A stretch of 64,000 nucleotides of DNA from Planctomycetota bacterium. Its GTDB lineage: Bacteria > Planctomycetota > MHYJ01 > WSZJ01. The notes under the pieces were generated by a model, which saw nothing but the letters and a program-made list of their open reading frames with translations, was not told where the DNA came from and searched no databases. The translations under genes and the position numbers were made by a program. The stretch lies in the NCBI GenBank assembly GCA_038060895.1, contig JBBTCT010000005.1, positions 63,551 to 127,550 on the forward strand. Reading direction: 5' to 3'. Each line of letters starts with the position of its first letter. Within the stretch, counting starts at the first letter, position 1. This document shows positions 8,963 through 26,487 of this stretch, piece by piece.

Positions 8963-9044
8963 CTACGCGTGAATGATCAATTTTCCAATTTCAATACTCA
9001 ATGATCAATTGACGGCAGGTCAACGGCTGCAGCCGGAACAGCCG

Positions 9045-10475
9045 TTACTTCAGGTTCTTGAAATAGTCCTGGTACTCGCGGTCCAGCGCGTCCAGGTCGC
9101 CGAAACACCGCTCCGCCGCCTCCCGGCCGCCCTCCCCCTGCACTTCCAGGGTGAAGTACCCGAAGAATGCCTGCCTGTATCTCTTGTCCTCGTGTTTCAG
9201 CAGGAAATAGACGAGGGCCCAGGACTGCGCCGCTGTGTCCTGAATATAAGTTCGTTTCCTGGGATCGGCCCGTTCGCGCGCGTACTGCAGGAAGGACACG
9301 TCCATGAAGTCCCGGAGCTTTTTCTGCTTGCCGCTCGAAATCATCCTTCTCACGTACGGCATGTACTCCGCGGATCTCTCTCCAAGCACAAAGCCGCCCT
9401 TCACGTCGCGCTTGAAGCATTCGAAGTACGCCGAAAGTCCCTCGGAAAACCAGGCCATCTCGGAGTCGATCAGTTTTCTGCGGTCATCCAGCCGCGATCC
9501 CGAAATCGCGTGGACGACGGCGTGGGTGCACAGGTGAAAAAGTGTCTCATACAGCTGGATCGTGTCCTTGTAGAGGTGAATTTCGCCCGTCCGGTTGTCG
9601 AAGTGGCCCCCGGCCCATGGCGTCGGGTTCGAAATTGAGTGATACCTCTCGCTGGACTCAAAAATGTAGACGAGGGTCGCGTCGTCCGCGGCATGTGCGG
9701 AGGCATCGAACAGCGAGCCGTATTCACCGCAGAAGATCCCGTAAAACGTGTTCACCACGTCCTTGAAGTCCCGCAACATCAGTTCTGCGCTGTACGCGTC
9801 GGACTTCTCCATGCAGAGGAGAAACGGCGAATTCGGGGAACAGTCGAGCCAGACGCGGGAATCTTCGGGCCGATTGCCCAGGATCGAACACTCCCAGGTC
9901 AACACCGCTACTTTTCGTTCCCGCGCCGAGAGGGCAGACTCTTCAAGCCGTTTTGACTTCAGCCAGTCCGCCCAGGGTAGCCGGCCCGTGGCCCTGGCTT
10001 CAGCATCCCTCTCCTTTTCGACGACTTCGCGCGCAACCGCGTCATCCGGCCGGAGCTTCAGGATCTCCTGAGCGAGCGCAAGCGCTTCCTCGTGAAGCGC
10101 CGCCTTTTCCAGCCAGCGGACCACGAGCTGGAGGTTCTCCGGGTCCACGCCGGCAGCAGGAAGTTTGGTGTCGCGATAGATCACGCGCAGCCTGGCACGG
10201 GCTCGTGAGTGGTTTCGGTCGAGTTTCACGGTTTTGACGTAGTACTGCTCCGCCGCTTCCAGGTCGCCCAGCTTCTCGCAGATTTCGGCGTACTCGAAGG
10301 CCGCGGACGGGCTGTCGTCCGCGTATCGCCGGAGTCTTTCCCTGAGCGCGGCGGTGTCGTCCAGGGGCGCGGGCGCCTGCGGAGGAGGGCGATCGGGAAC
10401 GAAAAGCACGATCCCGACGATCACAAGCCCGGGAAGGGCGAGACAGAGAATCAGTGTCCGAAGGCGGCGATTCAT
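9045..10475 (-). CDS. Membrane-anchored DUF1570-like protein with degenerate HExxH (HLCTH)
   Basis: Close paralog of 12630..14606 (YADDSPSAA.E, YSAELML.DF, NPTPWAGGHF, WF.EG, AQSW). Start set at MNRRLRTL. Confidence 0.75.
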   Translation of the reverse strand: MNRRLRTLILCLALPGLVIVGIVLFVPDRPPPQAPAPLDDTAALRERLRRYADDSPSAAFEYAEICEKLGDLEAAEQYYVKTVKLDRNHSRARARLRVIYRDTKLPAAGVDPENLQLVVRWLEKAALHEEALALAQEILKLRPDDAVAREVVEKERDAEARATGRLPWADWLKSKRLEESALSARERKVAVLTWECSILGNRPEDSRVWLDCSPNSPFLLCMEKSDAYSAELMLRDFKDVVNTFYGIFCGEYGSLFDASAHAADDATLVYIFESSERYHSISNPTPWAGGHFDNRTGEIHLYKDTIQLYETLFHLCTHAVVHAISGSRLDDRRKLIDSEMAWFSEGLSAYFECFKRDVKGGFVLGERSAEYMPYVRRMISSGKQKKLRDFMDVSFLQYARERADPRKRTYIQDTAAQSWALVYFLLKHEDKRYRQAFFGYFTLEVQGEGGREAAERCFGDLDALDREYQDYFKNLK

Positions 10476-10549: not shown

Positions 10550-11374
10550 ATGCGAATCCTCTTCGCCTCCGACTTCCACGGCACGATCCCCTACTTCGAT
10601 GCGTTCGCGAAGCTCGCGCGGCGCCTGAAGCCGGACGCGCTGCTTCTCGGCGGGGACCTCTTCGACAATTCCTCGCCGGTCGAAATCGCGCCGGTCGCGC
10701 AGCGGCAGACGGCGGAAGGGTGGTTCAAGGAGTGGTGCGACGGGGCGCCGGCGCCGGTGTACTGGATCGCCGGGAACCACGAGTGGAGGACGGTGACGGA
10801 TCCGCCGGCGCGGGCGGGAACGTACGTCGGGGAGCGGATGGTCGCGCTCGGCGACTGGGACCTGGTCGGCTTCTCCTTCTGTTCGCCGACGCCGTACTGG
10901 CTGATCGATCACGAGCGGCCGGAGGAAGCGCCGAACCGCCACGAGCCGAGATTCCGGTGCTATGCCTCGACCGGCGACAAGGCGGAACTGGTGGAGAAAC
11001 CGGAAGAGTGGCTCGCGAAGCGCCCGACGCTGGCGTCGATGCTGCGCGAGCTGCCGAGACCCCGGTCGTGGCGCAAGACGATCTTCATGGCGCACAATCC
11101 ACCGTTCGACTCCGGCCTGGACCTCCGTTACGGAAACCTGCCGGTCGGCAGCTCGGACATCCGCAATTTCATTCTCGCGACAAAGCCGGCCATCTCGCTT
11201 CATGGTCACATTCACGAAGCGCCGATTCTCACCGGCAAGCCGATGCACAAGGTCGGACGCACCTGGGGGTTCAATGCCGGCCGCGACCGCGACCACCAGG
11301 GGCTGCGCGCGCTCTGGATCGATCCTGACAAGCCTGAGGAACACGTGCTGCACGGCGGGAAGCCTATTGCTTAA
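10550..11374 (+). CDS. Calcineurin-like metallophosphoesterase (Icc-related)
   Basis: Motifs SDFHG, GGDLFD, GNHE, AHNPP, HGHIHE. Confidence 0.9.
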   Translation: MRILFASDFHGTIPYFDAFAKLARRLKPDALLLGGDLFDNSSPVEIAPVAQRQTAEGWFKEWCDGAPAPVYWIAGNHEWRTVTDPPARAGTYVGERMVALGDWDLVGFSFCSPTPYWLIDHERPEEAPNRHEPRFRCYASTGDKAELVEKPEEWLAKRPTLASMLRELPRPRSWRKTIFMAHNPPFDSGLDLRYGNLPVGSSDIRNFILATKPAISLHGHIHEAPILTGKPMHKVGRTWGFNAGRDRDHQGLRALWIDPDKPEEHVLHGGKPIA

Positions 11375-12527
11375 GCTGCTTCACGAACTCCCGGTACTCA
11401 CGGTCCAGCACCTCCAGATCTCCGAAGCACGCCTTCGCGGCCTCCAGGCCACCTTTCCCGCTGAGTTCGCTTTCCGCGTAACGGTCGAGCTCGCCGCGGC
11501 GTTTCCCGTCGCCGGACATCTCGAGGAAGGCGACGAAAGCCCAGCTCTGCGAGGCAACTGCAAACGCTTCACGGGGATCGGGGGAAGCGTCCAGGTCGGC
11601 GAACGTCGGTGCAAGCAGGGCGGGAAGGGGCTTCATTTTTTTCTCGCGGACCGCGGCGCGGACGTCGGTGAGATTCCGGGAGACGCCCTTGCCCGGGTGC
11701 AGGTGTGCCTGTCCGTCCGGGCGCGCGGCCGAGAGAAACTCTGCCGTGCCGTTCCAGAACCATGCGGCGAGCGAGGCCGTGGGAATCCCCTCGCGTGGCG
11801 CGCGAGCGCGGGCGAGCGCGATCCAGCACTGCCAGGTCGCTTCATGAAGCGCGCTCTCCTTCAGCTCGCGGCGGCCGCGGGACAGAAACGCCCAACCGGA
11901 GTGGAGATTCGTGTGGCTGATCGCAAACGCAGGCGGTTTCGCCCGCCGGAGGTATTCGTCCCGCGACGCCAGGACAACGACTGGCGCGATCCAGCCCGGA
12001 TCGGGGGGACGGGATTCAAAGAGGGACTTGAAGCGCGCCCGGAAGTCGGCGTGGAATTCACCCAGGGCAGCGGCGAGATCGGCTGCGATGACGGGAGCGG
12101 AAGCGTCGGGCGTTTCCTCGACGGCCACGATCCATGGCGCCCGGACGACGGGCAATTCGACGGCCTTCTTCGTCCCCCAGAGCAGATCCATCTCCCGCTT
12201 CGCCAGAGCCGCCCCGCGCAACAGTCCGGAGAGAACCGCAACCTCCCTGGAGGATTCATACAGGGCCAGCGCCGCCGAGATTTCCTTTCTCCCCTCGACG
12301 CCCACGCGCGCACCGCGCCATTCGTCGTCCGGGCCGGGGTTCGGTTCCACTCCCAGCAGGCTGACCGGCGGCTTCGGCGGTTCGTCGTTGGGTTTCGGCA
12401 CTTCGACGATTCCGGGCTGCGTCGGCGCCGGCGGTTTCTTCCCGGCCGGCCGCCCGCCCCAGAAAGCGGCTACGAGGATTCCGGTGAAGGCCGTGAGTGA
12501 GACGATGGAGAGGAGAGCACGGCGCAT
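11364..12527 (-). CDS. Exported DUF1570-like paralog with degenerate HExxH (HEATW)
   Basis: N-terminal hydrophobic anchor; C-terminus 'SQSWAFVAFL...AAKACFGDLEVLDREY' shared with the two neighbouring paralogs. Confidence 0.7.
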   Translation of the reverse strand: MRRALLSIVSLTAFTGILVAAFWGGRPAGKKPPAPTQPGIVEVPKPNDEPPKPPVSLLGVEPNPGPDDEWRGARVGVEGRKEISAALALYESSREVAVLSGLLRGAALAKREMDLLWGTKKAVELPVVRAPWIVAVEETPDASAPVIAADLAAALGEFHADFRARFKSLFESRPPDPGWIAPVVVLASRDEYLRRAKPPAFAISHTNLHSGWAFLSRGRRELKESALHEATWQCWIALARARAPREGIPTASLAAWFWNGTAEFLSAARPDGQAHLHPGKGVSRNLTDVRAAVREKKMKPLPALLAPTFADLDASPDPREAFAVASQSWAFVAFLEMSGDGKRRGELDRYAESELSGKGGLEAAKACFGDLEVLDREYREFVKQLKQ

Positions 12528-15110: not shown

Positions 15111-16511
15111 CTACCCACTACTCCCTGCGTCCTTCCCGATGTCCCCCAGCTTGTACTCCTTGATCTTCCTGTAAAGCGTGCGCTCGCCAATCCCCAGAAT
15201 CCTCGAAGCTTCCTCCCGGTTTCCCTTGGTCATTTCAAGCGTCGAGCGGATCAGCTCCGTCTCGGCGCGCTCGAGGCTCATCCCGGCGAACACGGCGGAC
15301 GTGCCGGGCGCCGCCGTTTCGCGCCGCTGGGCAATCTCCTCCGGGATGTCCTTGACGTCCAGCACGGGCTCCCGCGCCAGCACCACCATGGCTTCGAGCG
15401 TGTTCCGCAGTTCCCGCACGTTCCCCGGCCAGCGGTACGCGAGAAGCGCGGCTCGCGCGGCCGGCGAGATCCCGTCGATGCGGCGGTTGTGCTGCTGGGA
15501 GAAATCGCGGATGAAGTGATCGATGAGGAGCGCGATGTCGGACTGGCGGGCGCGGAGAGGCGGGAGATTGATCATGACGACGCGCAGGCGGTAGTAGAGG
15601 TCCTCGCGGAACTTCCCTTCGCGCACCATCTCTTCCAGGTGCCTGTTCGTGCTCGCGATCAGGCGGACGTCCACGGGAATGGGCAGATTCGAACCGACCC
15701 GGTAAACGCACCGTTCCTCAAGGACGCGCAGGAGTTTCGCCTGCGTGGAAAGCGGCATGTCGCCGATCTCGTCGAGCAGGAGCGTCCCGTGGTTGGCGAA
15801 TTCGAAGCGCCCCTTGCGCGCCCCGATGGCGCCGGTGAACGAGCCCTTCTCGTGCCCGAACAGCTCGGACTCGATCAGCCCTTCAGGCATCGCCGTGCAG
15901 TTGATGGGGATGAAATGGTGGTTGCGCCGCGGCGAATTCCGGTGGATCGCCTTCGCGACCAGTTCCTTTCCGGTTCCGCTTTCGCCGGTAATGAGGACGG
16001 TCGCCGAGGTCGGTGCAACCTGTTGAAGCGTGTTGAAGACCTTCTGCATTGCCTCGGAGTTTCCGATGATCCCGCCGAACCCGAACTTGCGGTCGAGTTC
16101 CTGGTGGAGAAACAGGTTTGAGCGCGAGAGATCCTGCTTCTCGACGACCTTCTCGATGACCGCGCGCAACTCGGCGATGTTGAGCGGCTTCTTCATGTAG
16201 GTCGAAGCGCCCTTTTTCATCGCCTCGACGGCGCTCTCGACGGAAGCGAAGCCGGTCATGACGACGACCTCGATGTCCGGGTGAAGGCGCCGGGCGGTCG
16301 TGAGGATTTCCATCCCGTCGATGTCGCGCATGACCAGGTCGGTCAGCACGACATCCACGTGCTCGGACTCCAGAAGTTCGAGCGCGGCCTTCCCGCCGCC
16401 GGCGACGAGCGTGCGGTAGCCGGTCCGGCGGAGGGATTCCGCCATGGTTTCGGCGTGTTCGGGGTCGTCATCGACCACGAGGATCGTGACGTCGGTGGAA
16501 GTGGGGGTCAT
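15111..16511 (-). CDS. Sigma-54-dependent response regulator (NtrC/AtoC family)
   Basis: Receiver domain, GESGTGKE, ESELFGHEKGSFTGA, FREDLYYRL, WPGNVREL, Fis-type HTH. Confidence 0.95.
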   Translation of the reverse strand: MTPTSTDVTILVVDDDPEHAETMAESLRRTGYRTLVAGGGKAALELLESEHVDVVLTDLVMRDIDGMEILTTARRLHPDIEVVVMTGFASVESAVEAMKKGASTYMKKPLNIAELRAVIEKVVEKQDLSRSNLFLHQELDRKFGFGGIIGNSEAMQKVFNTLQQVAPTSATVLITGESGTGKELVAKAIHRNSPRRNHHFIPINCTAMPEGLIESELFGHEKGSFTGAIGARKGRFEFANHGTLLLDEIGDMPLSTQAKLLRVLEERCVYRVGSNLPIPVDVRLIASTNRHLEEMVREGKFREDLYYRLRVVMINLPPLRARQSDIALLIDHFIRDFSQQHNRRIDGISPAARAALLAYRWPGNVRELRNTLEAMVVLAREPVLDVKDIPEEIAQRRETAAPGTSAVFAGMSLERAETELIRSTLEMTKGNREEASRILGIGERTLYRKIKEYKLGDIGKDAGSSG

Positions 16512-16544
16512 AGGCGGGGGGTTGGAAGGAGGGAAAGATTTAAC

Positions 16545-16652
16545 CCCAACCCCAACTCCAACTCCAAATTCCAACCTTCGATGAAAGGACCCGGTCCGTC
16601 AATGGCCACCCACTCAAGGAGTCGACCTCCCGATCGCCGAAATTGGGGTTGG
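16545..16652. repeat. Short hexamer repeats (CCCCAA/CTCCAA) with an inverted copy
   Basis: accccaaccccaactccaactccaaattccaac ... aattggggttggg in the kinase-regulator spacer. Confidence 0.5.
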
Positions 16653-16668
16653 GATCCGGAATTGTCTT

Positions 16669-17397
16669 TCAAAGCGGTATGGCCCCTCCCGCCCTGGGCG
16701 CCAACTCGCCTTCAACCGGAAGCCGTATCGTAAAGCAACTCCCCTTCCCCTCCTCGCTCGTCACTGTCAGCGTCCCGTCATGCTCGTGCACGATCCTCCT
16801 CGCCGTCGGCAACCCGAGCCCCGTCCCCGTCTTCTTCGTCGAGTAGTACACGTCGAAACACCTCGCCGCCGCCTCCGCCGACATCCCCGTCCCCGTATCG
16901 ATCACGTCCAGCTGGGCGAAATCACGCCACCTGGCCGTCTTCAGGATCAGTTCCCCCCCGTTCGGCATCGCCTGGATCGCGTTCATGACGAGGTTGAGCA
17001 GGGCCTGCTTGAAGAGGTTTGCATCGACAGAAACCTTCGGAAGTTCGCCGAGCGACCTCAGGACGCGGACTTTCTTCTGCGTCGCCTCCGGCGTGACGAA
17101 ATCCAGCACTTCCCCGATCACCCGGTTCAGGTCGGTCGGGCGGTTGTCCAGTTTGTGGCCGGCGGCGAACCGGAGGAAGTCGTTGAGGATTTCCTCGAGA
17201 CGGGCTGTTTCCTTGAGAAGGAGAGTGAGGCGCTGAAGCGCACGCCGCTCGCGTTCGTCGCGGGGCTCCTCGAAATCCTCCTGCAGCAGCTGCAGATTGG
17301 CCTGCAGAGTCGAGAGGGGGGTCCGGATCTCGTGCGCCAGCCCGGCGGCCAGCTGGCCGAGAAACGCGAGACGATCGCCTTCCTTGTTCTGAGACAC
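16669..17397 (-). CDS. Histidine kinase core (HisKA + HATPase) without a sensor domain
   Basis: AHEIRTPL about 20 aa from the start; N-box NLVMNAIQA; DTGTGM; GTGLGL. Confidence 0.88.
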   Translation of the reverse strand: MSQNKEGDRLAFLGQLAAGLAHEIRTPLSTLQANLQLLQEDFEEPRDERERRALQRLTLLLKETARLEEILNDFLRFAAGHKLDNRPTDLNRVIGEVLDFVTPEATQKKVRVLRSLGELPKVSVDANLFKQALLNLVMNAIQAMPNGGELILKTARWRDFAQLDVIDTGTGMSAEAAARCFDVYYSTKKTGTGLGLPTARRIVHEHDGTLTVTSEEGKGSCFTIRLPVEGELAPRAGGAIPL

Positions 17398-17547
17398 CGG
17401 GACATTCTGTTAAAGGTCGGCCCGCGCGTCTACCGCATGAACCTGCCGGCCGGCGCCCGCCGGTCGCATTCAGGTCAGATTGAACATCGCCGATCAGGGG
17501 CATATACTCCGATGCCGACATCGATTCCCGACCAAACCTCGAGGCCC

Positions 17548-19389
17548 ATGGCCGCCGACATCCAGGACTGGCTTTCCAATCGCGACATGTTCGCGCGCCG
17601 CGTCTCCTCGCACGAGGTGCTCGGCCTGCTGAAGCGGTCCTTCACGGTCCCCGCGCACACCATCGCGGCGGTCGTGGAGAACGGCTCGCGGCGCGTGGCC
17701 AAGGGCGGTGAACAACTCAGCGGCCGCTTCGACGCCGTCCTCATCAAAACCCAGGAAATGCCGGTCGCCTTCCAGATGGCCGGGCTGCGCTCCAAGGACG
17801 GGTTCGGCATGAACGCCGGGGTCCGCCTCACGCTTCAGCTCGAATCCTACGAGCCCGATCGCGTCGAGGACTTCTGCCGGAACTTCACCGCGGCCAACGC
17901 GACCACGTCGTCGGAGGACCTGCGGTCGTACCTGGCGGTGGACGTGAAGCGCGCGCTGTCCGAGTACATTTCTTCGCACGAGGCGGCCGACCTCCAGAAT
18001 TCCCAGGCGTCGTCCGACGTCGAAGGGGGGCTGCGAAGAGCGCTGGAAGGCCCGCTCTTCGGCAAGGGTCTCAACTTCCGGAAGCTCATGGAGCTCGAAT
18101 TCCACAGCGACTCCTTTGAGAAGTCGCGCGACGAAGCGCGGAAGCAGAACGAGAAGATCCGTGAGCACGAGGGAGTTCTTCTCGACCAGCAGCGGCGCGA
18201 GGAGAAGCTGAAGAATCTCGCGGCGCTGATGAAGAGCGCGGACGCGCAGGAGGTCTTCAAGGAGATCCGCGACGAGCGCGTCAAGTCGCTGCTGTACGCG
18301 AAGCTCATGGAGAACGACCTGAAGGACCTCTCGAGCGAGGACCTGCGCGCGAAGCTGAACCAGTGGGGAGACGACCTGATCGGCGTCGTGCTCAAGGCTT
18401 ACGCGGCGCTGGCGGAGGCGCCGGATGCGCCGGTGGAGCCCGGGAAGACCGGGAAGCTGGCGCGCGTCGTGGTCACGGCGGGATCGCGGGTGTTGCTGTT
18501 CAATCCCGTCGATTTCACCGGCTCGTGCCGGCTGATCGACGCGGGATTCAACCTGCGCAGCGCGAGAATTCATCCCTGGAAAGGGCGCGGTCTGATTTTC
18601 GCGGGTGGAAAGCGGCAGATTTCGGCGATCGACCCGGAGACCACGCAGTCCGTCGCCGCGTACCCGCTTCCCCAGGAGAAAAAACCCAAGGGCGGCGTGA
18701 ATGCTTCGGCGGTCTGGAAGCACCGGATGTTCGCGACGCACAGCGAGCTGGGGCTGATCGAGTGGGACCTGAACAGGCCGGGCGTTCCGGGAGTGACGAT
18801 CAACGCCGACCTGACGGCACTTTCCGCGACGGTGCGGGCCGCGGTGACGACCGCGGACGGATGGCTGTATTTCGCGAGCGGACGGACGGTGTACGGGATG
18901 GACCTGGAAAAGGGAACGCCTCCGGTCGCGTTCGGGCCGCAGACGCCGAGCGGCGTGACGGCGCTGGCGGTCGGCGAGCGGCTGATCGTGGCGGGGTGCG
19001 GAAGCGGGAACGAGGGCGCGTTGTCGATATGGGACCGGCGCGATCCGTCGCGCGCCGTCGGCGTGATCCGCAGGAATGCGCCGATCGGGAGCGTGCGCCT
19101 GACGTCGATCGGAGGCGTGCCGCACATGCTGTTCACGTGCCGCGACCACGGCGTCACGGCGCGCGTGATCGGGCAGACTCTTGAGACCCACTACGATGCG
19201 GGCGAGCACTCCGTGATCCTCGCCGAGGGCGGCTCCGATCATGTCGTCGCCATCGACCACAACGGGCGCTTCCTCATCGCCTGGGACGCCGCGCGCCCTG
19301 CGAAGCCGCGGAAGATCCTGGACCTGAACGCGTACACGGACCAGGCGGTGTACGACCTGGCGCCTGTTTTCGGGGAGGGCGGCGCGTGA
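17548..19389 (+). CDS. SPFH/Band-7-like N-terminal domain + coiled coil + WD40-like beta-propeller
   Basis: 'FTVPAHTIAAVVENG' and 'LRSKDGFGMNAGVRL' resemble SPFH strands; charged coiled coil; C-terminal blade-like motifs (LIEWD, LSIWD, LIAWD). Alternative start at 17512. Confidence 0.6.
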   Translation: MAADIQDWLSNRDMFARRVSSHEVLGLLKRSFTVPAHTIAAVVENGSRRVAKGGEQLSGRFDAVLIKTQEMPVAFQMAGLRSKDGFGMNAGVRLTLQLESYEPDRVEDFCRNFTAANATTSSEDLRSYLAVDVKRALSEYISSHEAADLQNSQASSDVEGGLRRALEGPLFGKGLNFRKLMELEFHSDSFEKSRDEARKQNEKIREHEGVLLDQQRREEKLKNLAALMKSADAQEVFKEIRDERVKSLLYAKLMENDLKDLSSEDLRAKLNQWGDDLIGVVLKAYAALAEAPDAPVEPGKTGKLARVVVTAGSRVLLFNPVDFTGSCRLIDAGFNLRSARIHPWKGRGLIFAGGKRQISAIDPETTQSVAAYPLPQEKKPKGGVNASAVWKHRMFATHSELGLIEWDLNRPGVPGVTINADLTALSATVRAAVTTADGWLYFASGRTVYGMDLEKGTPPVAFGPQTPSGVTALAVGERLIVAGCGSGNEGALSIWDRRDPSRAVGVIRRNAPIGSVRLTSIGGVPHMLFTCRDHGVTARVIGQTLETHYDAGEHSVILAEGGSDHVVAIDHNGRFLIAWDAARPAKPRKILDLNAYTDQAVYDLAPVFGEGGA

Positions 19390-20411
19390 GCGACGGCGCG
19401 GGGACGTGCGCGGCCTGCGGGCGGACGTATCTGTCGCGAGTCGGGATTTTTCGCGATGACGCGGCGTGCGCGACGTGCGGCAAGCCGATCTGCGCGGCGT
19501 GCTGGAGCGACAAGACCACGTTCTGCCAGGAGCACGAGGACGTACCGGTGGCGACGCTGGCCGACGCGCCGAAACCCGGGGACATCCCCACGGGGCAGGT
19601 GCCGGCAGGGTCGATCAGCCGCCAGTCGGCTCGCGAAATGGAAGAGGGATTCCTTTCGCGGGTGAGGAAGAACTTCCGCCAGCTCGCGGGGATTTACAAC
19701 CCGCTGGATGGCCGCTGGTACGACGTCATCGAGCGAAATACGGGCGAGTACGTCGTCGACCTGGGGGCCGAGGCCGCGAAAAACGCGGTTCGCGATCGCG
19801 CGAAATCGGGCTTCAACGAAATCCTCGCTTCGATGCCCACCAACCGCGCCGCCGTCTGCGACGTCTTCGCGCGGGACTTTCTCGGCGCGAAAGTGAAGAA
19901 GATCTGCCTCGCCGGGGTGTCGCTCTCCCCGCTCGACGAACTCGTAAAGCCGGGCTGGTCGAGCCAGCCGCTCGGGTACGCGGCGGTTGCCCAGGCCCAG
20001 CGGCGCATCGTCACGGATCCGGGCGTCTTCTATTACCTCTGCTATTTCGCGACGACGGGCTGGTCCGGAGAAGCGCGCGACATCCTCGCGAACGGGCCGA
20101 ATTTCGTCTCGTGCCTCGTCGAAAAGCAGGCGGATTCGTGGCGCATCACCGCGAAGGACGACGGCCGATGGGGCGATGCGCTGGCGGTGTACGACCTGGA
20201 GACGTACTCGGAGAAGCGCGACCGGGTGCAAATTTTCGTGAAGCGGCACACGTACGAGCTGCTGATGGACCGTTTGAGCGACCGGTATGTGTGCGAGAAG
20301 ACGGGGCTGCCGCTGGACGTCGTGAGGGCGTCATTCCGGGATCTTTCGCAGGATCCGTTTGTGCACCTGACGGCGGATGAGGAGCAGTTCCGGATATCGC
20401 GGGTTTACTGA
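19386..20411 (+). CDS. Zn-finger protein with alpha/beta middle domain and possible C-terminal winged helix
   Basis: CAAC..CATC..CAAC..CQEH; GTGA overlap with the upstream gene; C-terminal helix-helix-helix-hairpin pattern. Confidence 0.65.
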   Translation: MSDGAGTCAACGRTYLSRVGIFRDDAACATCGKPICAACWSDKTTFCQEHEDVPVATLADAPKPGDIPTGQVPAGSISRQSAREMEEGFLSRVRKNFRQLAGIYNPLDGRWYDVIERNTGEYVVDLGAEAAKNAVRDRAKSGFNEILASMPTNRAAVCDVFARDFLGAKVKKICLAGVSLSPLDELVKPGWSSQPLGYAAVAQAQRRIVTDPGVFYYLCYFATTGWSGEARDILANGPNFVSCLVEKQADSWRITAKDDGRWGDALAVYDLETYSEKRDRVQIFVKRHTYELLMDRLSDRYVCEKTGLPLDVVRASFRDLSQDPFVHLTADEEQFRISRVY

Positions 20412-20630: not shown

Positions 20631-21332
20631 ATGATCCTCGACAAGATCAAGAAGCTGATGGGCCTCGGCTCGATCCCCGACGAGGTCGCCCCGATCTACA
20701 AGGGCGCCAAGTCGGAACGCGAGGCTCTCGAACTCCTCCGCGACGCCCGCCGCCGCGACGAGGACCGCCGTAACCGCGCCCTCGAGGACGTCGAAATCCT
20801 CCAGGGCAAGGAAGGCGAGCTCATGGAGGAGGGCAAGCGCGAAACCGACCAGAACCGCCGGCTCTCCCTCGCCCGCAAGATCAAGGACGTCCGCTGGAAG
20901 GTCGAGGAGATCGAAACCAAGGTCGAAAACATCTTCAACAAGCGCATCCGCATCTACAAAGAACACGTCGCGTCGCTCGAAACCCTCGTCGCGCTCGCGG
21001 AAGAGCCGCTTCCGTCGTCCAAGCAGCTGGAAGACGCGGCGATCAAGGCGAAAGAGAAGCGCGAGGACCTGGACAAGACCGTCGCGATGGCGGAGGGAAT
21101 GTCGCTCGACAAGAACGCGGAGCCGGTGCTGGACGAAGAAGAGAAGTCGATTCTGGCGGAGTTCGAGAAGCACGATGACTCCAAGCTGGAGCAGGACGAG
21201 CTGGCCGCGCTGACGAAGCAGAGGCCGGAAGACGAGTTCGCGAAGCTGGAGAAGACGGCGCGCAAGAAGGAGCGGCCGTCGAAAGAAGCGCCGAAGAAGC
21301 AGGCTGAGTCAGAAGAGGAGGAGCTCGAATGA
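20631..21332 (+). CDS. ESCRT-III/Snf7-like helical protein 1
   Basis: Amphipathic N-terminus MILDKIKKLMG, long helical hairpin, acidic tail; RBS GGAG; in the cluster with the Vps4-like ATPase. Confidence 0.55.
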   Translation: MILDKIKKLMGLGSIPDEVAPIYKGAKSEREALELLRDARRRDEDRRNRALEDVEILQGKEGELMEEGKRETDQNRRLSLARKIKDVRWKVEEIETKVENIFNKRIRIYKEHVASLETLVALAEEPLPSSKQLEDAAIKAKEKREDLDKTVAMAEGMSLDKNAEPVLDEEEKSILAEFEKHDDSKLEQDELAALTKQRPEDEFAKLEKTARKKERPSKEAPKKQAESEEEELE

Positions 21333-21994
21333 GCGCGGCCAGCGACATGATGGACTGGCTGTTCAAGCGGCGCCGCCGCATCACGGACTTCAAGCCGGAG
21401 GAGTTGCGGCGCGAGGAAAAGCGGCTGGAGATCCGTGAAAACCAGCTCGTGGCGCAGCAGGAAAAACTCGACCGCGAGAAGGAAGACATCTTCCAGCAGG
21501 GCGTGAAGAACAAATCGGTCGTGCGCCGGCGGATGTACGCGCGGCGCTTCAATGATCTGATGAGCCGCCTGCGGCTGATGGACCGCGAGCTGTCGCGGGT
21601 TTCGAAAGAGGTGATGACGCTGTCGCGGATCCGCGCGCTGGTGGAACGCACGAAGAGCCCGAAGTCTGTCACCGGAATCCTGAACAAACTGACGGATTCC
21701 AATCTCGACGAACTGCAGGCGCTGCTGGAAGACGACAAGATCGGCGAAGAGTTCTACCTGCAGAAGCTGGACATGCTTCTGGGCGTGGCCAACGACCCCG
21801 CGTACGACGCGACCGAGATCGGATCCGAGGGGATGGAAGTCCTCAAGACGTGGGAGGCGATGGACGAGGGGGAGATGGAGTTCGACGAAGGCCTGAAACA
21901 GGCTGAAACGGGGATCAAGGAACGCGGAGAGGGACGCAAAGAAAAGCCGCAGCACGAGAAGGAGAAGGACGAGGAGCAGGAGGAGGCCACCTAG
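21329..21994 (+). CDS. ESCRT-III/Snf7-like helical protein 2
   Basis: MMDWLFKR start, basic helical N-half and acidic C-half; ATGA overlap; paralog of the next gene. Confidence 0.6.
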   Translation: MSAASDMMDWLFKRRRRITDFKPEELRREEKRLEIRENQLVAQQEKLDREKEDIFQQGVKNKSVVRRRMYARRFNDLMSRLRLMDRELSRVSKEVMTLSRIRALVERTKSPKSVTGILNKLTDSNLDELQALLEDDKIGEEFYLQKLDMLLGVANDPAYDATEIGSEGMEVLKTWEAMDEGEMEFDEGLKQAETGIKERGEGRKEKPQHEKEKDEEQEEAT

Positions 21995-22603
21995 ATGAGC
22001 CTGATCGACCTTTTCAAGCGGCCGAAGCGGATGGCCGACCTGAAGCTGGAGGAAGTGAGACGGGAAGAAGCCCGCCTTTCGCTGCGCGAGACGCAGGCGA
22101 TTGCGCGGCTCGAGCAGATGGAGCGCGACAAGGAGGAGATTTTCCGCAAGGGGACGAAGATAAAGTCCGGCATCAGGCGGAAACAGCTCGCCCGCCAGTT
22201 CGAGCAGAAGAAGAACGAGATCGCGATTTCAGAGCGCGAGCTGAACCGGCTCGGCAAGGAAGCGGTGACGATCGCGGCGATCCGGACGGCCATCCAGCGC
22301 AAGACGGACATGAAGAAGAGCGTGCTGTCGATCCTGAACCTGGCCGAGGAAGGAGAGCTGCAGCGACTCCTCGAGGACGACAAGATTTCGTACGACCTCT
22401 ACATGGAGCGCCTCGGCGAAATCGCCGACACCGCCAACGATCCTTCGAGGGACATCATCAGCGAGGTCGGCAAGGAAGGGGCCGAGCTCCTCGACATCTG
22501 GCAGAAGATGGACGACGGCGAGATCGAGTCGTTCGACACGGGGTTGAAACTCGCGGAAGAAAAAGCCAGGGAGAAGCCGCTGCCTGAAGAAGAAACAGAG
22601 TGA
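21995..22603 (+). CDS. ESCRT-III/Snf7-like helical protein 3 (tandem paralog of protein 2)
   Basis: Shares LFKR, RREE.RL..RE.Q, LLEDDKI, ANDP, G.EG.E.L..W..MD.GE with 21329..21994; TAG-ATG junction. Confidence 0.6.
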   Translation: MSLIDLFKRPKRMADLKLEEVRREEARLSLRETQAIARLEQMERDKEEIFRKGTKIKSGIRRKQLARQFEQKKNEIAISERELNRLGKEAVTIAAIRTAIQRKTDMKKSVLSILNLAEEGELQRLLEDDKISYDLYMERLGEIADTANDPSRDIISEVGKEGAELLDIWQKMDDGEIESFDTGLKLAEEKAREKPLPEEETE

Positions 22604-22610
22604 TCCTGCG

Positions 22611-23102
22611 ATGAGAGTGGCGACGAGCGGCGACCCGACCGTGGCGATGTGGGCGGCGCAGCGTTACGACCCCGCGTCGGCGCTTCGAACGGCCTGGGGG
22701 AAACTGTTCCGCATCGTGGCGTGGTGCACGGCGGCGCCCTCATTCGGGCTGCTCGCATGGAGCACCATCGCATACGCGCGCCTCGACGGGCCTTCGGGTC
22801 TCCAGACGCTCGGCTACTTCCTGAACGACTACGTCGCCGCGTGCGGCGTCGGGCTCGCCGCGCTTTTCGCGTCGATCGCACTCCCCCGCCTCCGGCGCCG
22901 CGACGTGCCGATGCTCTTCGGCGGGTGCGCGGCCGCCATCCTGCTCCTTTACCTGCCGAGTCTCTTCAACGCCTGGCCCGTGCTGCGCGAGAAGAAAATG
23001 CCCGCCACTGCCGTCGTCCCGCTGGCTTTCCCGTTCGCGCTCCTCTCGATCGCGGCTGCGGCCGCGGTGCTGGCGAAGCGCCCCAGGCCAAGGGCGGCGT
23101 AA
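22611..23102 (+). CDS. Small integral membrane protein (~4 TM)
   Basis: Four hydrophobic stretches; lies 7 nt after the upstream stop and 3 nt before the ATPase start. Confidence 0.65.
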   Translation: MRVATSGDPTVAMWAAQRYDPASALRTAWGKLFRIVAWCTAAPSFGLLAWSTIAYARLDGPSGLQTLGYFLNDYVAACGVGLAALFASIALPRLRRRDVPMLFGGCAAAILLLYLPSLFNAWPVLREKKMPATAVVPLAFPFALLSIAAAAAVLAKRPRPRAA

Positions 23103-23105
23103 ACC

Positions 23106-24329
23106 ATGGACCTCTACACGCCCATCAAGCAGGCGCTGACGAAAGCCAAGGAACTCTACGAGGCGCGCGAGCACGACAAGGCCGCCGCTTCCTACGACAA
23201 GGCCGCTTCCCTCATGTCGATCTACGCCGAGCAGGCGATCGGGCGCGACGCGGAGATGAGGCGGCGCAAGAAGGCGGTGGAGTACCGCGAGATCGCCAAG
23301 AAGCTGCGCAGCGGCGAGATTGAAGCGCCCGGCGCGAAAGACGACCGCGATGACAATGGAAGCGCCGCACCGGCGGCGGCCGCCGCGGAAGGCAAGCAGG
23401 CAAAAGCCGCCGGCGAGGTCAAGGCGGCCGTGCTCTCGCTGATCAAGACCTCTTCGATCGGCTGGGGAGACATCGGCGGACTGGAGCCGACAAAGGAAGA
23501 AATCAAGTTTGCGCTCGGGATCACTCTGGCGAAGCAGCCGGCGAACGTGCAGCTCTCGGCCTGGACGAACATCCTGTTCTACGGACCGCCCGGGACCGGG
23601 AAGACGCTTCTCGCCGCCGCGACGTCGCACGCGATCCGGAACTCGGACGACATCCAGGCGGTGTTTTTCAACGTGAAGGTGTCGTCGATCCTCTCGAAGT
23701 ACTTCGGCGAGTCGTCGAAGATCATCAGCGAGCTCTACGGCACGGCCCGTGACACGTCGCCGGCCGTCATCTTCCTCGACGAATTTGAGTCGGTCGCTGG
23801 GAAGCGCGACGACCAGGACTCGGGGCCGGAGCGGCGGATCATGTCGACGCTGCTTTCCGAGCTGGACGGGATGGAGGCGAAGGGGCGCCGGGACATCTAC
23901 GTGCTGACGATTGCGGCGACGAACCGGCCGTGGGATCTCGACCCCGCGGTGCTGAGCCGGTTTGAGAAGAAGATCCTGATTCCGCTTCCGGACATGGTCG
24001 CGCGGCGTGAAATCCTGAGGATCCACCTCGACAAGCGCGGCTTCCAGGTGAACGCGGACGCCGCGCAACTGGCCACCGCGACGGAGGGGTACAGCGGGCG
24101 CGAGATCGAGCGGCTGTGCAAGGAGGTCACCACGCGGATGGTGGCGGAGATGAACCGGGAGATTCCGGGGCTGATCGACAAGGGGCTGGACACGGTGAGG
24201 ACCTACCAGCTCAAAGTGAGGCCGCTGGGAATGGGGGATTTCCAGAAAGCGATCGCGAAGCTCCATCCGCAGACGACGGCGGCCGACGTGAAGAAGTACA
24301 ACGAGTGGAGAGAGGCGCAAGTGGAGTAA
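23106..24329 (+). CDS. Vps4/CdvC-like AAA+ ATPase with N-terminal MIT-like domain
   Basis: Three-helix N-terminus (QALTKAKELYEAREHDKAAASYDKA...KKAVEYREIAKKL); W.DIGGLE; Walker A GPPGTGKT; pore loop SKYFGES; Walker B IFLDE; SRH AATNRPWDLDPAVLSRFEKKILIPLPD; GYSG.EI; C-terminal helix DVKKYNEW. Confidence 0.85.
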   Translation: MDLYTPIKQALTKAKELYEAREHDKAAASYDKAASLMSIYAEQAIGRDAEMRRRKKAVEYREIAKKLRSGEIEAPGAKDDRDDNGSAAPAAAAAEGKQAKAAGEVKAAVLSLIKTSSIGWGDIGGLEPTKEEIKFALGITLAKQPANVQLSAWTNILFYGPPGTGKTLLAAATSHAIRNSDDIQAVFFNVKVSSILSKYFGESSKIISELYGTARDTSPAVIFLDEFESVAGKRDDQDSGPERRIMSTLLSELDGMEAKGRRDIYVLTIAATNRPWDLDPAVLSRFEKKILIPLPDMVARREILRIHLDKRGFQVNADAAQLATATEGYSGREIERLCKEVTTRMVAEMNREIPGLIDKGLDTVRTYQLKVRPLGMGDFQKAIAKLHPQTTAADVKKYNEWREAQVE

Positions 24330-24477: not shown

Positions 24478-25074
24478 ATGGGCATCTTCAAGTCCCGCGA
24501 AGAAAAACGCATCGAACGCGACCTCGAGGTCCGCAAGGGCATCGCTTCCATCAAGCGCAACCTCAAGGACATGGATAAGCACACGAAGGAATACATCGAC
24601 AAGGCCAAGAAGGCCAAGCGCATCGGCGACAACGACCAGCTCAAATTCATCAAGAGCGCTCTCAAGAAAACCGCTCTCGGCAAGAAGATGCGCGAGCGCC
24701 AGCTCCTCTCGCTCGAGACCGCCATGCAGATCAAAAACCAGGCGGAGTCCGACGGCGAATTCGCCCGGGCGATGATGGAAGTCTCCAAGTCGATCTCCGA
24801 GGTCTACGGCTCCACCGACCTGGCCAAGACCCAGAAGAATTTCGAACGCGCCATGATGCAGGCCGAAACGCTGCAGGACCGCATGCAGATCGTCGTCGAG
24901 TCCATGTCCGACACGCTCTCGACCTCCGACGAGGACGCCGAGAAGATCCTCAGCGACAAGGACATAGACAAGATGATCGACGACGAAGCGGTACACGAGG
25001 AGAAGGGCGAGCTGGACAAGGAGATCGAGAAGGGGCTGAAGGAGATCGAAGAGGAGATGGGGAAGGAGTCCTGA
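24478..25074 (+). CDS. ESCRT-III (Snf7/Vps2/Vps24/CdvB-like) protein 4
   Basis: MGIFK start; basic hairpin 'KAKKAKRIGD'; 'ARAMMEVSKSI...DLAKTQKNFE.AM' helix pattern; acidic 'DKDIDKMIDDEA'; MIM1-like tail DKEIEKGLKEI. Confidence 0.75.
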   Translation: MGIFKSREEKRIERDLEVRKGIASIKRNLKDMDKHTKEYIDKAKKAKRIGDNDQLKFIKSALKKTALGKKMRERQLLSLETAMQIKNQAESDGEFARAMMEVSKSISEVYGSTDLAKTQKNFERAMMQAETLQDRMQIVVESMSDTLSTSDEDAEKILSDKDIDKMIDDEAVHEEKGELDKEIEKGLKEIEEEMGKES

Positions 25075-25146
25075 AGTATGTAGGAAGTGGCCTTTTTGGA
25101 CGGGGATGAGGGATTTTCGAAGCTCAGAGCGAGCGCGAGAGTGACT

Positions 25147-26487
25147 ATGCCAGAACCATGGGAAGCAAAATGGCGGCTGATCCGTTCAATCGGAGAGGGT
25201 GGCCAAGGGGTTACCCACCTCGTTTCCGACAGGGCAGAGCCCTGCCGCATGGGCGCACTCAAATTGCTGAAAAACAACAAAAGCAGCGAAGCACGAACGC
25301 GGATGCTTCAAGAAGTGACGAATCTTCAAGTCGTCCACACTCAGAAGGGGCGAGTTCCGGACGTGCTCGATTCCAATGTTCAGTTCCACGCCGAGAACGT
25401 TCCTCTCTACTTTGTCATGGAGTACGTCGACGGCGTAACCCTGACCAAGCGAGTGAGGGAGTGCGGCGCCCTATCTGTTCAGGACTCGTTGAGCCTGTGT
25501 CTCTCGATCTGCAGAACGCTAGAGATCGCGCACCGGTTCAGCATTCAGCACCGCGATTTGAAACCGGACAATGTACTGATTCCGACCTCGCGTCCCGCGG
25601 AACCCATCCTTGTTGACTTCGGGCTCTCCTTCAATGAAGAAGACCACGACTCGGTCACGAGAACCAACGAGACGATTCAGAATCGGTTTCTAGCTCTCCC
25701 AGAACTTCGGGTACCTGGCGCGTCAAAACGCGACACCCGCTCCGATGTGACTGCAGTGTGCGGAATGCTCTACTTTTGCCTGACCGGATTCGAGCCCGTT
25801 GACTTGAGTGACGGGTCTGGCAGAGCCCCTCACCGCAGACCTGTTCCTCACGGCTTCCCGGTCGAATTGCAGAAGTCTCAACTGGCTGCGCTGTTCGACC
25901 GAGGATTTCAGATTGATATTGGAAACAGATTTCAGTCGATCGAAGAACTCATTCAGAGGGTTCTGCACGTTCAGAGTGATGCGCCCGACAAATCGGTCGA
26001 CCTGGTTGAGAAGGCAAGGGTGGCGAGTTCAGAGCTTCGCCGAAGAAGTAGCAAGCGCCGAGCCGCAGTCTTTCAGACTTGCGTTGGAGTCTTTGGGGCA
26101 AAGCTAGCCGACTTTGTCCAACGACTGAACGGCACCATCGCCGACTTCTCAGTAAGCCACGGATCAAAGACACCCGGAATGCCACTGCCAGCTGGAAGTG
26201 TTCAGATTCTCGACGTGAGCCACTCAGTAACGTTGAGCTTGAAGGGTCATCAAAACTCCTGTTCCTTTATCTACAACTGCGCGCTCGAGGAAAACCAGAT
26301 GGTCCTACTTCGAAGTCGGCTTAGATACGGAATTCCTGATCCTTGGAATCCCCCTTCTGAGAATTGGGAACGGGTCGCATATTTCCCCACGCCAGAAGAA
26401 CTTGATTTCGCTCCGATCGAAGCGGATCTCAGATCGACACTTGCGTTTGGGATGGAACTCATGGTCGACAAGCTCGGAGATGCCTAG
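25147..26487 (+). CDS. Ser/Thr protein kinase with lower GC content
   Basis: GEGGQG, ALK, HRDLKPDN, DFG, LPE, DV...CG; many A/T-ending codons relative to flanking genes. Confidence 0.88.
   Translation: MPEPWEAKWRLIRSIGEGGQGVTHLVSDRAEPCRMGALKLLKNNKSSEARTRMLQEVTNLQVVHTQKGRVPDVLDSNVQFHAENVPLYFVMEYVDGVTLTKRVRECGALSVQDSLSLCLSICRTLEIAHRFSIQHRDLKPDNVLIPTSRPAEPILVDFGLSFNEEDHDSVTRTNETIQNRFLALPELRVPGASKRDTRSDVTAVCGMLYFCLTGFEPVDLSDGSGRAPHRRPVPHGFPVELQKSQLAALFDRGFQIDIGNRFQSIEELIQRVLHVQSDAPDKSVDLVEKARVASSELRRRSSKRRAAVFQTCVGVFGAKLADFVQRLNGTIADFSVSHGSKTPGMPLPAGSVQILDVSHSVTLSLKGHQNSCSFIYNCALEENQMVLLRSRLRYGIPDPWNPPSENWERVAYFPTPEELDFAPIEADLRSTLAFGMELMVDKLGDA

Follow-up and report, generated by a model that had tools for sequence, protein, structure and literature searches.

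A Vps4-like AAA+ ATPase encoded beside a Snf7-family protein in a conserved Planctomycetota operon

Here we describe an operon of a Planctomycetota bacterium (MHYJ01; WSZJ01) that encodes an AAA+ ATPase, called PlaVps4, next to a Snf7-family protein, called H4. The window, by which we mean the whole stretch of DNA that was analysed, comprises 64,000 nucleotides and corresponds to positions 63,551-127,550 of the forward strand of contig JBBTCT010000005.1 (assembly GCA_038060895.1), from a genome of 5.4 Mb that is 86.5% complete. PlaVps4 is the product of an intact open reading frame (ORF) of 407 amino acids (aa) at 23106-24329 on the plus strand, and the genes of its operon follow one another on that strand in the order big622, zn341, H1, H2, H3, TM163, ATPase and H4. 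The parts of the ATPase gene and the gene for H4 are as follows.

23106-23315, plus strand: likely MIT-like three-helix N-domain, aa 1-70 (AlphaFold2, family profile)
23316-23435, plus strand: Ala/acid-rich flexible linker, aa 71-110 (model confidence 30-41, variable in length)
23436-24140, plus strand: single classical AAA cassette with lid, aa 111-345 (Pfam AAA, AAA_lid_3)
24141-24329, plus strand: insert at the Vps4 beta-domain position, aa 346-391, then the C-terminal helix, aa 392-407, and the stop codon (Vps4_C, motif alignment)
24478-25074, plus strand: H4, a 198-aa protein of the Snf7/ESCRT-III family by family profile against PDB and by Pfam Snf7

Domains of the ATPase and the identity of H4

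A first-pass annotation of this ORF had described a three-helix N-terminus of about 70 aa, a flexible Ala-rich linker, a single AAA domain and a C-terminal helix, and had quoted three strings, all of which are indeed found: SKYFGES (aa 197-203), ATNRPWDLDPAVLSRFEKKILIPLPD (aa 271-296) and, close to the C-terminal end, DVKKYNEW (aa 394-401). The resemblance goes well past what chance would give. The single AAA domain is recovered by Pfam AAA (E = 1.5e-34) together with AAA_lid_3 (E = 4e-6), and the C-terminal helix by Pfam Vps4_C, which spans aa 357-402 (E = 1.3e-6, 28.7 bits against a curated cut-off of 21.3). AlphaFold2, for which the model was built on 25 homologues, predicts N-terminal helices at 4-19, 23-42 and 47-69 with a confidence (predicted local distance difference test, pLDDT) of 85-92. 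The pLDDT falls below 50 at aa 73-126, and the linker is also the sole part of the protein that varies in length among the 25 homologues. Foldseek listed katanin, crenarchaeal Vps4 and p97 for the model of the whole ATPase (template-modelling (TM) score 0.2, root-mean-square deviation about 20), a list that does not discriminate.

Within the AAA cassette lie Walker A (GPPGTGKT, 160-167), pore loop 1 (KYFG, 198-201), Walker B (DE, 225-226), the sensor-1 residue N273 and the second region of homology (SRH, 271-296), which holds a single Arg (S284-R285). Walker A, Walker B, sensor 1, pore loop 1 and the entire SRH are invariant in an alignment of the 25 homologues, all of which are about 400 aa long, share 59-95% identity and come from Planctomycetota where a name is given.

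The annotation had further called the N-terminus MIT-like and suggested that a profile search or structure prediction be used as a check. A profile of 14 N-termini finds in PDB the MIT domain of NRBF2 (0.0017) and those of SKD1, VPS4A and VPS4B (0.009-0.06), with nearly the whole domain aligned, and Pfam MIT is matched by 4 of the 14 relatives' N-termini (best E 0.0016). Because of these family matches and the confident three-helix prediction, the N-domain of PlaVps4 is likely, if not proven, to be MIT-like. For the N-domain (aa 1-78) and the H4 tail (aa 150-198), the prediction of a complex scored 0.01 in a run without controls and counts neither way.

A whole-library profile search from H4 recovered 486 representative relatives, and Pfam Snf7 is matched by 22 of 77 full-length relatives (best 1.4e-8). 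When the 77-row H4 profile is compared with PDB, CHMP2A is matched at 2.9e-7 (residues 12-147 against 9-144), followed by CHMP3 (2.9e-4), Snf7 (3.5e-3), CHMP1B (0.02) and the crenarchaeal CdvB and CdvB2 (0.1). The only stronger row, a designed repeat protein in which eight tiny repeats were matched, was taken as an artefact. Only the 77-row alignment worked in this search, and a small alignment of H4 orthologues returned nothing relevant from PDB. In a six-frame Snf7 scan of the whole genome, H4 is the sole match. Given the profile matches, the 22 Pfam matches among 77 relatives and this solitary position in the genome, H4 is by sequence a member of the Snf7/ESCRT-III family, closest to CHMP2/CHMP3. 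An ESM Atlas model of H4 (predicted TM score 0.53) aligns with a eukaryotic Snf7 cluster at a TM score of 0.56, which is a lead only.

Both ends of H4 are conserved. Its N-terminus follows the pattern MGxFKS, in which F-K-S after M-G is invariant, and a terminal helix of the form DxxI(E/D)KGLKxI lies 6-10 residues from the end of the protein. H2 has a similar terminal (E/D)F(D/E)xGLKxA, and hhalign pairs the H2 and H4 tails. Terminal motifs of this kind are present in 9 of 10 H4, 6 of 11 H2, none of 11 H3 and none of 11 H1 sequences, counts that express conservation rather than independent significance, as the regular expression was written after the sequences had been viewed. On sequence, the terminal helices of H4 and H2 are obvious candidates for docking motifs, and they may resemble the eukaryotic MIM1 consensus.

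Some long relatives of H4 have fused architectures. Eight of the ten that were scanned (P0336, P0343, P0352, P0353, P0355, P0361, P0366 and P0378) are FtsK/SpoIIIE-type ATPases with an N-terminal H4/Snf7-like domain, one of them matching Pfam Snf7 at 0.0013, and in a ninth the domain is fused to RuvB. A literature search on bacterial ESCRT-III/Snf7-FtsK proteins found no paper.

Probable affinity of PlaVps4 with archaeal Vps4/CdvC proteins

The scores of PlaVps4 against the NCBIfam models of its class are alike and do not decide among them, and natural comparators were therefore taken for alignment and trees. These were thaumarchaeal CdvC, the Vps4 of Promethearchaeum syntrophicum MK-D1 (Asgard), archaeal Cdc48 and PAN, the genome's own FtsH and other AAA proteins. 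The archaeal Vps4/CdvC comparators carry Pfam MIT, AAA, lid and Vps4_C, the last at E values of 1.3e-8 to 4.7e-6, the same range as for PlaVps4. BLASTP aligns PlaVps4 almost end to end with the Asgard Vps4 and the thaumarchaeal CdvC (residues 12-402 and 23-403) at 29-30% identity.

Several short features set these proteins apart from Cdc48, PAN and FtsH. The SRH of PlaVps4 is two residues shorter than in Cdc48 D1/D2, PAN and FtsH, a shortening common to Vps4/CdvC. In the motif alignment the PlaVps4 family reads VL--SRFEKKI, the Asgard Vps4 VLR--RFEKKIY and CdvC LR--RFTKRIY, whereas Cdc48 D2, PAN and FtsH read LLRPGRFDR; the RFEKKI of PlaVps4 is identical to that of the Asgard protein. A PW pair after sensor 1 is likewise common to PlaVps4 and Vps4/CdvC and absent from Cdc48, PAN and FtsH. 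The insert at the beta-domain position is found in PlaVps4, the Asgard Vps4 and CdvC and is absent from PAN, FtsH and AAA2, a second AAA protein of the module that is described below; presumably it is shorter in PlaVps4 than in eukaryotic VPS4. Finally, the pore loop KYFG aligns with the SKWLGE of the Asgard Vps4 and CdvC, and the terminal ...KYNEW aligns with their ...KFEKW and ...AYYKW.

Phylogenetic trees give a similar picture. In an all-column tree of 42 rows, PlaVps4 and two alphaproteobacterial homologues are sister to archaeal Vps4/CdvC (Shimodaira-Hasegawa-like approximate likelihood ratio test 86) within a clade of support 97. A tree of the AAA core (41 rows, residues 112-345 of PlaVps4, with one very long-branched Asgard AAA protein of unknown type dropped) recovers the same Vps4/CdvC grouping at 88/64, separated at 100/94 from Cdc48 D1, Cdc48 D2, PAN and FtsH. 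In this tree PlaVps4 constitutes a deep clade of its own (100/100) and is not nested in the sampled archaeal sequences. From these alignments and trees we conclude that PlaVps4 appears to be a member of the Vps4/CdvC-katanin ('meiotic') group within the classical AAA clade and to be most like archaeal Vps4/CdvC.

The alphaproteobacterial homologues come from two metagenome-assembled genomes (L001:7977-9209 and L002:7968-9200), are full-length, share 41-43% identity with PlaVps4 and have the same Ser-Arg SRH. Sister to the planctomycete clade, they sit among unrelated metabolic genes without a helical partner, and they may represent a transfer of the motor alone. A generic P-loop pattern scan of contigs returned, among the matches listed, mostly loci of the Cdc48/FtsH type and no planctomycete. 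The present genome also encodes a 446-aa protein with TPR and AAA regions (contig C11, L123), which the trees place next to AAA2 on a very long branch.

Gene content, conservation and genomic setting of the operon

The remaining genes of the operon lie upstream of the ATPase. They include three of the four helical neighbours named in the first-pass annotation, all four of which exist as ORFs, H4 being the fourth.

17521-19389, plus strand: big622, about 610-622 aa, first gene of the syntenic block in the class (start 17521, or about 17557 by orthologue consensus)
19386-20411, plus strand: zn341, 341 aa, Cys-rich zinc-ribbon and conserved core
20631-21332, plus strand: H1, 233-aa helical acidic protein
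21329-21994, plus strand: H2, 221-aa helical protein, paralogue of H3
21995-22603, plus strand: H3, 202-aa helical protein
22611-23102, plus strand: TM163, 163 aa, four hydrophobic segments
Loci L102, L103, L106-L109, L140, L141, L143, L144, L146 and L147 of other genomes: AAA2, a gene outside this operon that comes after H4 in many lineages

The start of zn341 overlaps the stop of big622, the start of H2 overlaps the stop of H1, and TM163 ends 3 bp upstream of the ATPase gene; the pairs H1/H2, H2/H3, H3/TM163 and TM163/ATPase all overlap or lie 0-7 bp apart. Scans for promoter-like and terminator-like sequences gave nothing above the shuffled expectation. Divergent genes just upstream of the operon, assigned by reading their translations, encode a sigma-54-type response regulator (15111-16574, minus strand) and a histidine-kinase fragment (16669-17397, minus strand).

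H2 and H3 are 42-47% identical (BLASTP), and hhalign aligns them collinearly with the H4 family at probabilities of 68% (E 4.7e-5, 139 columns) and 51% (E 1.5e-4, 166 columns); a shallow H4 alignment found nothing against H2/H3. The AlphaFold2 model of H3 (mean pLDDT 71.9) has a hairpin (18-55/59-108) at pLDDT 87-96 followed by four shorter helices (110-127, 133-147, 154-173 and 180-192), an ESCRT-III-like pattern. By profile and model, H2 and H3 are probable, though unproven, divergent subunits of the ESCRT-III kind. H1, which matches no Pfam, NCBIfam or PDB family, is on its sequence a possible but uncertain divergent relative of H2/H3.

big622 has an N-terminal SPFH/Band-7-like region, a coiled coil and a C-terminal beta-propeller-like region. 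Its domain assignment is weak, because Pfam Band_7 is matched by only 2 of 11 orthologues (best 2.4e-4) and the window copy has no family match; PQQ_2 and WD40 gave single weak matches. The N-terminal zinc-ribbon of zn341 is weakly FYVE-like and occurs only in some lineages; 3 of 11 members match FYVE, none of them passing the cut-off (best E 0.0027). The conserved core of zn341, of about 270 aa, belongs to an unknown family. TM163 matches no family in Pfam, NCBIfam or PADLOC.

Orthologues of the ATPase are present in 22 of 41 relatives, including all 7 from the genus and 10 of the 11 that belong to one other family of the class. Across the phylum, 38 of 251 Planctomycetota genomes encode it (E <= 1e-90), 17 of them among 160 high-quality genomes, at 44-67% identity. 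Among 11 related loci, the series big622-zn341-H1-H2-H3-ATPase is complete in ten, and the eleventh ends at a contig edge; H4 is present in ten, AAA2, a 31-34% identical AAA gene, follows H4 in six, and TM163 occurs only in the three loci of the same genus and is therefore a genus-specific insertion in the operon. Ten distant loci of the phylum have H4 beside the ATPase in nine cases, big622 in seven, AAA2 in six and zn341 in five at E <= 1e-26 with one further weak match; a weak H1-like gene lies upstream of the ATPase in three, and H2/H3 in none. From these gene counts, the phylum-wide core consists of zn341, a helical protein, the ATPase, H4, AAA2 and big622, and H2/H3 are extra genes of the class to which the window belongs. 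In 19 of the 21 loci, no more than about 3 kb separates H4 from the ATPase.

AAA2 proteins have 372-391 aa, pass Vps4_C and have CdvC as their best or second-best NCBIfam model, at 225-234 bits; in one copy the CdvC match includes the N-terminal part, pairing residues 7-367 with model positions 8-363. AAA2 keeps the RPGR form of the SRH. It is a second MIT-AAA paralogue and likely an accessory motor. In the present genome AAA2 stands alone on another contig (C15, L124/L148), with no module genes around it. A different duplication is seen in a genome of the same order (L105, G009:C79), where tandem ATPase copies (8938-10176 and 10894-12132) have H4 between them and the N-domain of the second copy has diverged to 21% identity with that of PlaVps4.

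The codon usage of the ATPase was described in the first-pass annotation as native and as a sign of long residence, and both statements hold up. The GC content at third codon positions (GC3) of the ATPase is 0.88, and its codon usage is native because this value lies within the 0.82-0.90 of neighbouring genes (0.85-0.89 in the operon); long residence is supported by the native GC3 together with the identities of the orthologues over the phylum. Contigs from RNA libraries of one aquifer sample match H1, H2, H3, the TM163-ATPase junction, the ATPase, the ATPase-H4 spacer and H4 at no less than 99% identity. These are a weak hint of expression, given that DNA carry-over is possible, and the operon parts that no such contig covers are not thereby shown to be silent.

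Directly after H4 lies a Ser/Thr kinase gene (25087-26487, plus strand) whose product strongly matches the anti-phage system PD-T4-6 of PADLOC (E 1.6e-99, 331.8 bits). Its GC3 is 0.60, and no close relative lies next to H4 in the 11 related loci, where kinases elsewhere are only 22-29% identical. Because of these two observations, and because it sits where AAA2 lies in other families, the kinase looks like a foreign defence gene inserted at the end of the operon.

No FtsZ was found in this 86.5%-complete genome, nor was any match to PspA_IM30. Canonical FtsZ above the family cut-off is found in none of the 251 phylum genomes, in which 15 weak matches occur, none of them among the 38 carriers of the ATPase. 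The module is not the general division machine of the phylum, since six in seven genomes lack it, and it may be a lineage-specific device for scission or repair.

A probable ESCRT-III/Vps4-like module and rival explanations

Taken together, the domain architecture, motifs, family relationships and synteny described above make it probable, in our judgement, that PlaVps4 is a bacterial AAA+ ATPase of the Vps4/CdvC branch and the motor of a conserved Planctomycetota membrane-remodelling module of the ESCRT-III/Vps4 kind. By analogy, the operon is a native, phylum-wide bacterial variant of the ESCRT-III/Vps4 system, a real one in its genes and conservation and a putative one in its function. The likeness is closest to the archaeal systems (Vps4/CdvC with CdvB, as in Cdv and Asgard operons), which share the architecture of an MIT-like domain (a likely one in PlaVps4), linker, one AAA cassette, short insert and C-terminal helix. 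They also share SRH length, PW, RFEKKI (in Asgard), an aromatic-hydrophobic pore loop and the strength of the Vps4_C match, and they are sister to PlaVps4 in trees, at moderate support. In both, the ATPase is encoded beside Snf7-family genes, with several paralogues per operon. There are also differences. The host is a bacterium, identity is 29-30%, the CdvC score is far below the cut-off and the first arginine finger is Ser. The archaeal proteins match Pfam MIT at 3.4e-7 to 6.9e-11, whereas the planctomycete signal is much weaker. No CdvA or ESCRT-II-type winged-helix gene was recognised in the planctomycete module, and its accessory genes differ from the archaeal ones in encoding an SPFH-like/propeller protein, a zinc-ribbon protein and a second MIT-AAA paralogue.

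In a comparison with eukaryotic VPS4/CHMP, the best alignments of the H4 profile are to CHMP2A and CHMP3, across the helical core, and the N-terminal profile of PlaVps4 finds the MIT domains of VPS4A and VPS4B; the terminal helices of the subunits sit where MIM (MIT-interacting motif) elements lie in eukaryotic ESCRT-III, according to PMC7618577 and PMC9477494. In contrast, no Vta1, ESCRT-0/I/II or ubiquitin link was seen. Katanin p60 and spastin are MIT-bearing AAA proteins of the meiotic clade, and some sources auto-annotate relatives of PlaVps4 as 'katanin p60', but the conserved neighbour of PlaVps4 is of the Snf7 family and is not tubulin-like. PspA/Vipp1 and the operons of Ravi et al. 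2024 are also cases of bacterial ESCRT-III-superfamily proteins encoded with an AAA+ ATPase. However, H4 falls on the Snf7 side rather than the PspA side, and PlaVps4 is a single-cassette MIT-AAA protein with Vps4_C, unlike PspF or the two-cassette AAA proteins of Ravi et al. 2024. SPFH partners are known for PspA (PMC10936438 and PMC11237479) and for some archaeal ESCRT systems (PMC10936438), and the weak SPFH likeness of big622 recalls them.

How such a module might work can be outlined by analogy with the docking and ATP-driven polymer remodelling of Vps4 systems, as set out in PMC7618577 and PMC9477494. H4 would polymerise on the cytoplasmic face of a membrane, and in the window's class H2, H3 and perhaps H1 would probably join the polymer. 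The three-helix N-domain of PlaVps4 would dock on the conserved acidic C-terminal helices of the subunits, the ATPase would assemble into a ring with the aid of its C-terminal helix, and the pore loop KYFG would thread subunits through the pore at the expense of ATP. Remodelling or disassembly of the polymer could then lead to membrane constriction, scission or repair. AAA2, the SPFH-like/beta-propeller protein big622 and the zinc-ribbon protein zn341 are likely accessory parts. It is also tempting to speculate that the ring chemistry may be altered or shared, given one arginine finger only and AAA2 as a further motor.

A number of observations weigh against this interpretation. The AAA core scores 179.8 bits with the NCBIfam model for CDC48, 176.3 with PAN and 167.6 with CdvC, all far under the cut-offs; for the CdvC equivalog the cut-off is 650 bits, which the Asgard Vps4 (285.7) and thaumarchaeal CdvC (504) likewise fail to reach. 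The last 112 aa of PlaVps4 match katanin p60 best in PDB (3.7e-10), aligned to the very C-terminus and thus through the terminal helix. The Vps4/CdvC grouping has moderate support in a region of the tree where long branches meet, as the program warned, and the trees were computed without eukaryotic Vps4, katanin, spastin, fidgetin or Msp1. Within the AAA core, residues 152-291 are poorly modelled by AlphaFold2 (pLDDT <50). Moreover, the first of the two usual arginine fingers is replaced by an invariant Ser (S284) in the 25 homologues and in the alphaproteobacterial relatives, and for this reason PlaVps4 is filed as a distinct Vps4-like bacterial branch rather than as an orthologue. The Vps4-type reading of the first-pass annotation is supported by Vps4_C, the short SRH, RFEKKI, PW, the tree position and the Snf7-family neighbour, with this residue as a caveat.

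Further points of this kind concern the N-domain and the helical proteins. The MIT signal is weak even at the family level (E about 1e-3 to 1e-2), TPR_2 is weakly matched by 10 of the 14 N-termini, and the window's own N-terminal 80-105 residues match no MIT model or chain; the MIT-like N-terminus of the first-pass annotation is likely from the predicted helices and the family profile. The window copy of H4 on its own reaches only E values of 0.15 and 0.04 with Pfam Snf7 (12.1-15.2 bits against a cut-off of 27.3); this model is insensitive for prokaryotes, since no match in the control genomes, Sulfolobus included, attains the cut-off. Of the four helical proteins, only H4 is firmly ESCRT-III. 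H2 and H3 have no Pfam or PDB sequence match, a 50-row alignment included. In a Foldseek search of H3 against PDB, 22 of the 36 matches listed are ESCRT-III/PspA/Vipp1 chains, none of them significant (E 0.17-2.0, with every listed match at 0.12 or above), and a wide VIA-align search with H3 was non-specific, with generic helical hairpins at Z 10-12.6 and ESCRT-III chains tied among them. H1 aligns with the H2/H3 profile by hhalign at 53% probability (E 1.4e-4) over 58 columns at the hairpin only, and with the H4 family not at all.

Several of these findings would also suit an AAA+ unfoldase dedicated to the recycling of a coiled-coil scaffold, such as a polymer of a cytoskeletal or stress-granule-like kind, with no role in membrane remodelling. 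Such an enzyme would account for an AAA core equidistant from the CdvC, CDC48 and PAN models, for the TPR_2 matches of the N-domain, for the lack of a significant match of H1-H3 to known families and for the generic hairpins that dominate the H3 fold search, and its likeness to Vps4 would reflect common descent in the classical AAA clade combined with a convergent small helical N-domain. We nevertheless consider it unlikely, given that H4, the most constant neighbour, is of the Snf7 family by profile search and that the ATPase both passes Vps4_C and has the Vps4/CdvC-specific SRH deletion; the weak SPFH/Band-7 matches in 2 of 11 big622 orthologues and the four-segment membrane protein TM163 in the operon point to membranes as well.

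Very improbable, in our estimate, is an anti-phage defence cassette in which the AAA ATPase, the helical proteins as effectors and the neighbouring Ser/Thr kinase would work together. This idea draws on matches of the ATPase core to the PADLOC IetA models at 107-124 bits and on the strong PD-T4-6 match (E 1.6e-99) of the gene directly downstream of H4. Yet the IetA match is confined to the generic AAA core (aa 146-353), the NCBIfam IteA model gives 115.9 bits where its cut-off is 510, and PADLOC has no match for H1-H4, TM163, big622 or zn341. The kinase, moreover, departs from the operon in GC3 (0.60 against 0.85-0.89) and has no close relative next to H4 in the 11 related loci, and the module is chromosomal, syntenic and vertically spread over the phylum. 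We give even slightly less credence to the idea that the genes were recently acquired by horizontal transfer from archaea or eukaryotes and are now decaying or functionless. The absence of one arginine finger and the patchy distribution of the module (38 of 251 genomes) are what such a history might leave behind, but the GC3 is native, the reading frames are intact, the catalytic motifs are all invariant over the 25 homologues (59-95% identity), different families of the phylum retain the gene order, and PlaVps4 forms its own deep clade (100/100) outside the sampled archaeal sequences.

The reading of PlaVps4 as the motor of an ESCRT-III/Vps4-like module bears on published accounts of bacterial ESCRT-III relatives. 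Recent reviews regard membrane-cutting machinery of this kind as lacking in bacteria. Ravi et al. 2024 describe VPS4-like ATPases that were transferred to bacteria, with snf7 replaced by a TPR and 6TM gene, which differs from the present operon. They also describe sporadic bacterial Snf7 homologues that occur with a different, two-cassette AAA protein, and operons of PspA or TM-Snf7 with tandem AAA proteins. A 2025 review (PMC7619361) states that bacteria appear to lack a Vps4-like ATPase, so that their PspA/Vipp1 polymers must be controlled in another way. According to Liu et al. 2021, proteins of the CdvB/CHMP/Snf7 type occur in eukaryotes and archaea, and planctomycete-centred papers that mention ESCRT treat it as archaeal. 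Full-text literature searches returned no description of a planctomycete or other bacterial Vps4 and Snf7 operon of this type, and the supplementary tables of PMC11237479 and PMC10936438 might list such loci. A conserved and native Planctomycetota operon that couples a Vps4-type MIT-AAA protein to a Snf7-type protein and helical paralogues contradicts Makarova et al. and PMC7619361 on this point.

The phylum in which the operon occurs matters in this regard, with no canonical FtsZ in 251 genomes and with elaborate membrane invaginations, and its division and membrane shaping are an open question according to PMC5147048. The boldest extension of our interpretation is that the module is a working bacterial ESCRT machine that carries out membrane scission proper, by sealing the division or bud neck or by severing the cytoplasmic-membrane invaginations and vesicles characteristic of the phylum, in a subset of FtsZ-less, endomembrane-rich Planctomycetota, although we regard this as a long shot. 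If it were true, a pair of ESCRT-III and Vps4 with several specialised subunits and two MIT-AAA motors would predate the archaeal-bacterial split or have crossed between domains very early, and ESCRT-based scission would not be an archaeal-eukaryotic invention. Some carriers of the module have genomes of 3-5 contigs and may be cultured, which would make genetics possible, and the operon would offer a bacterial system for studying ATP-driven remodelling of ESCRT-III.

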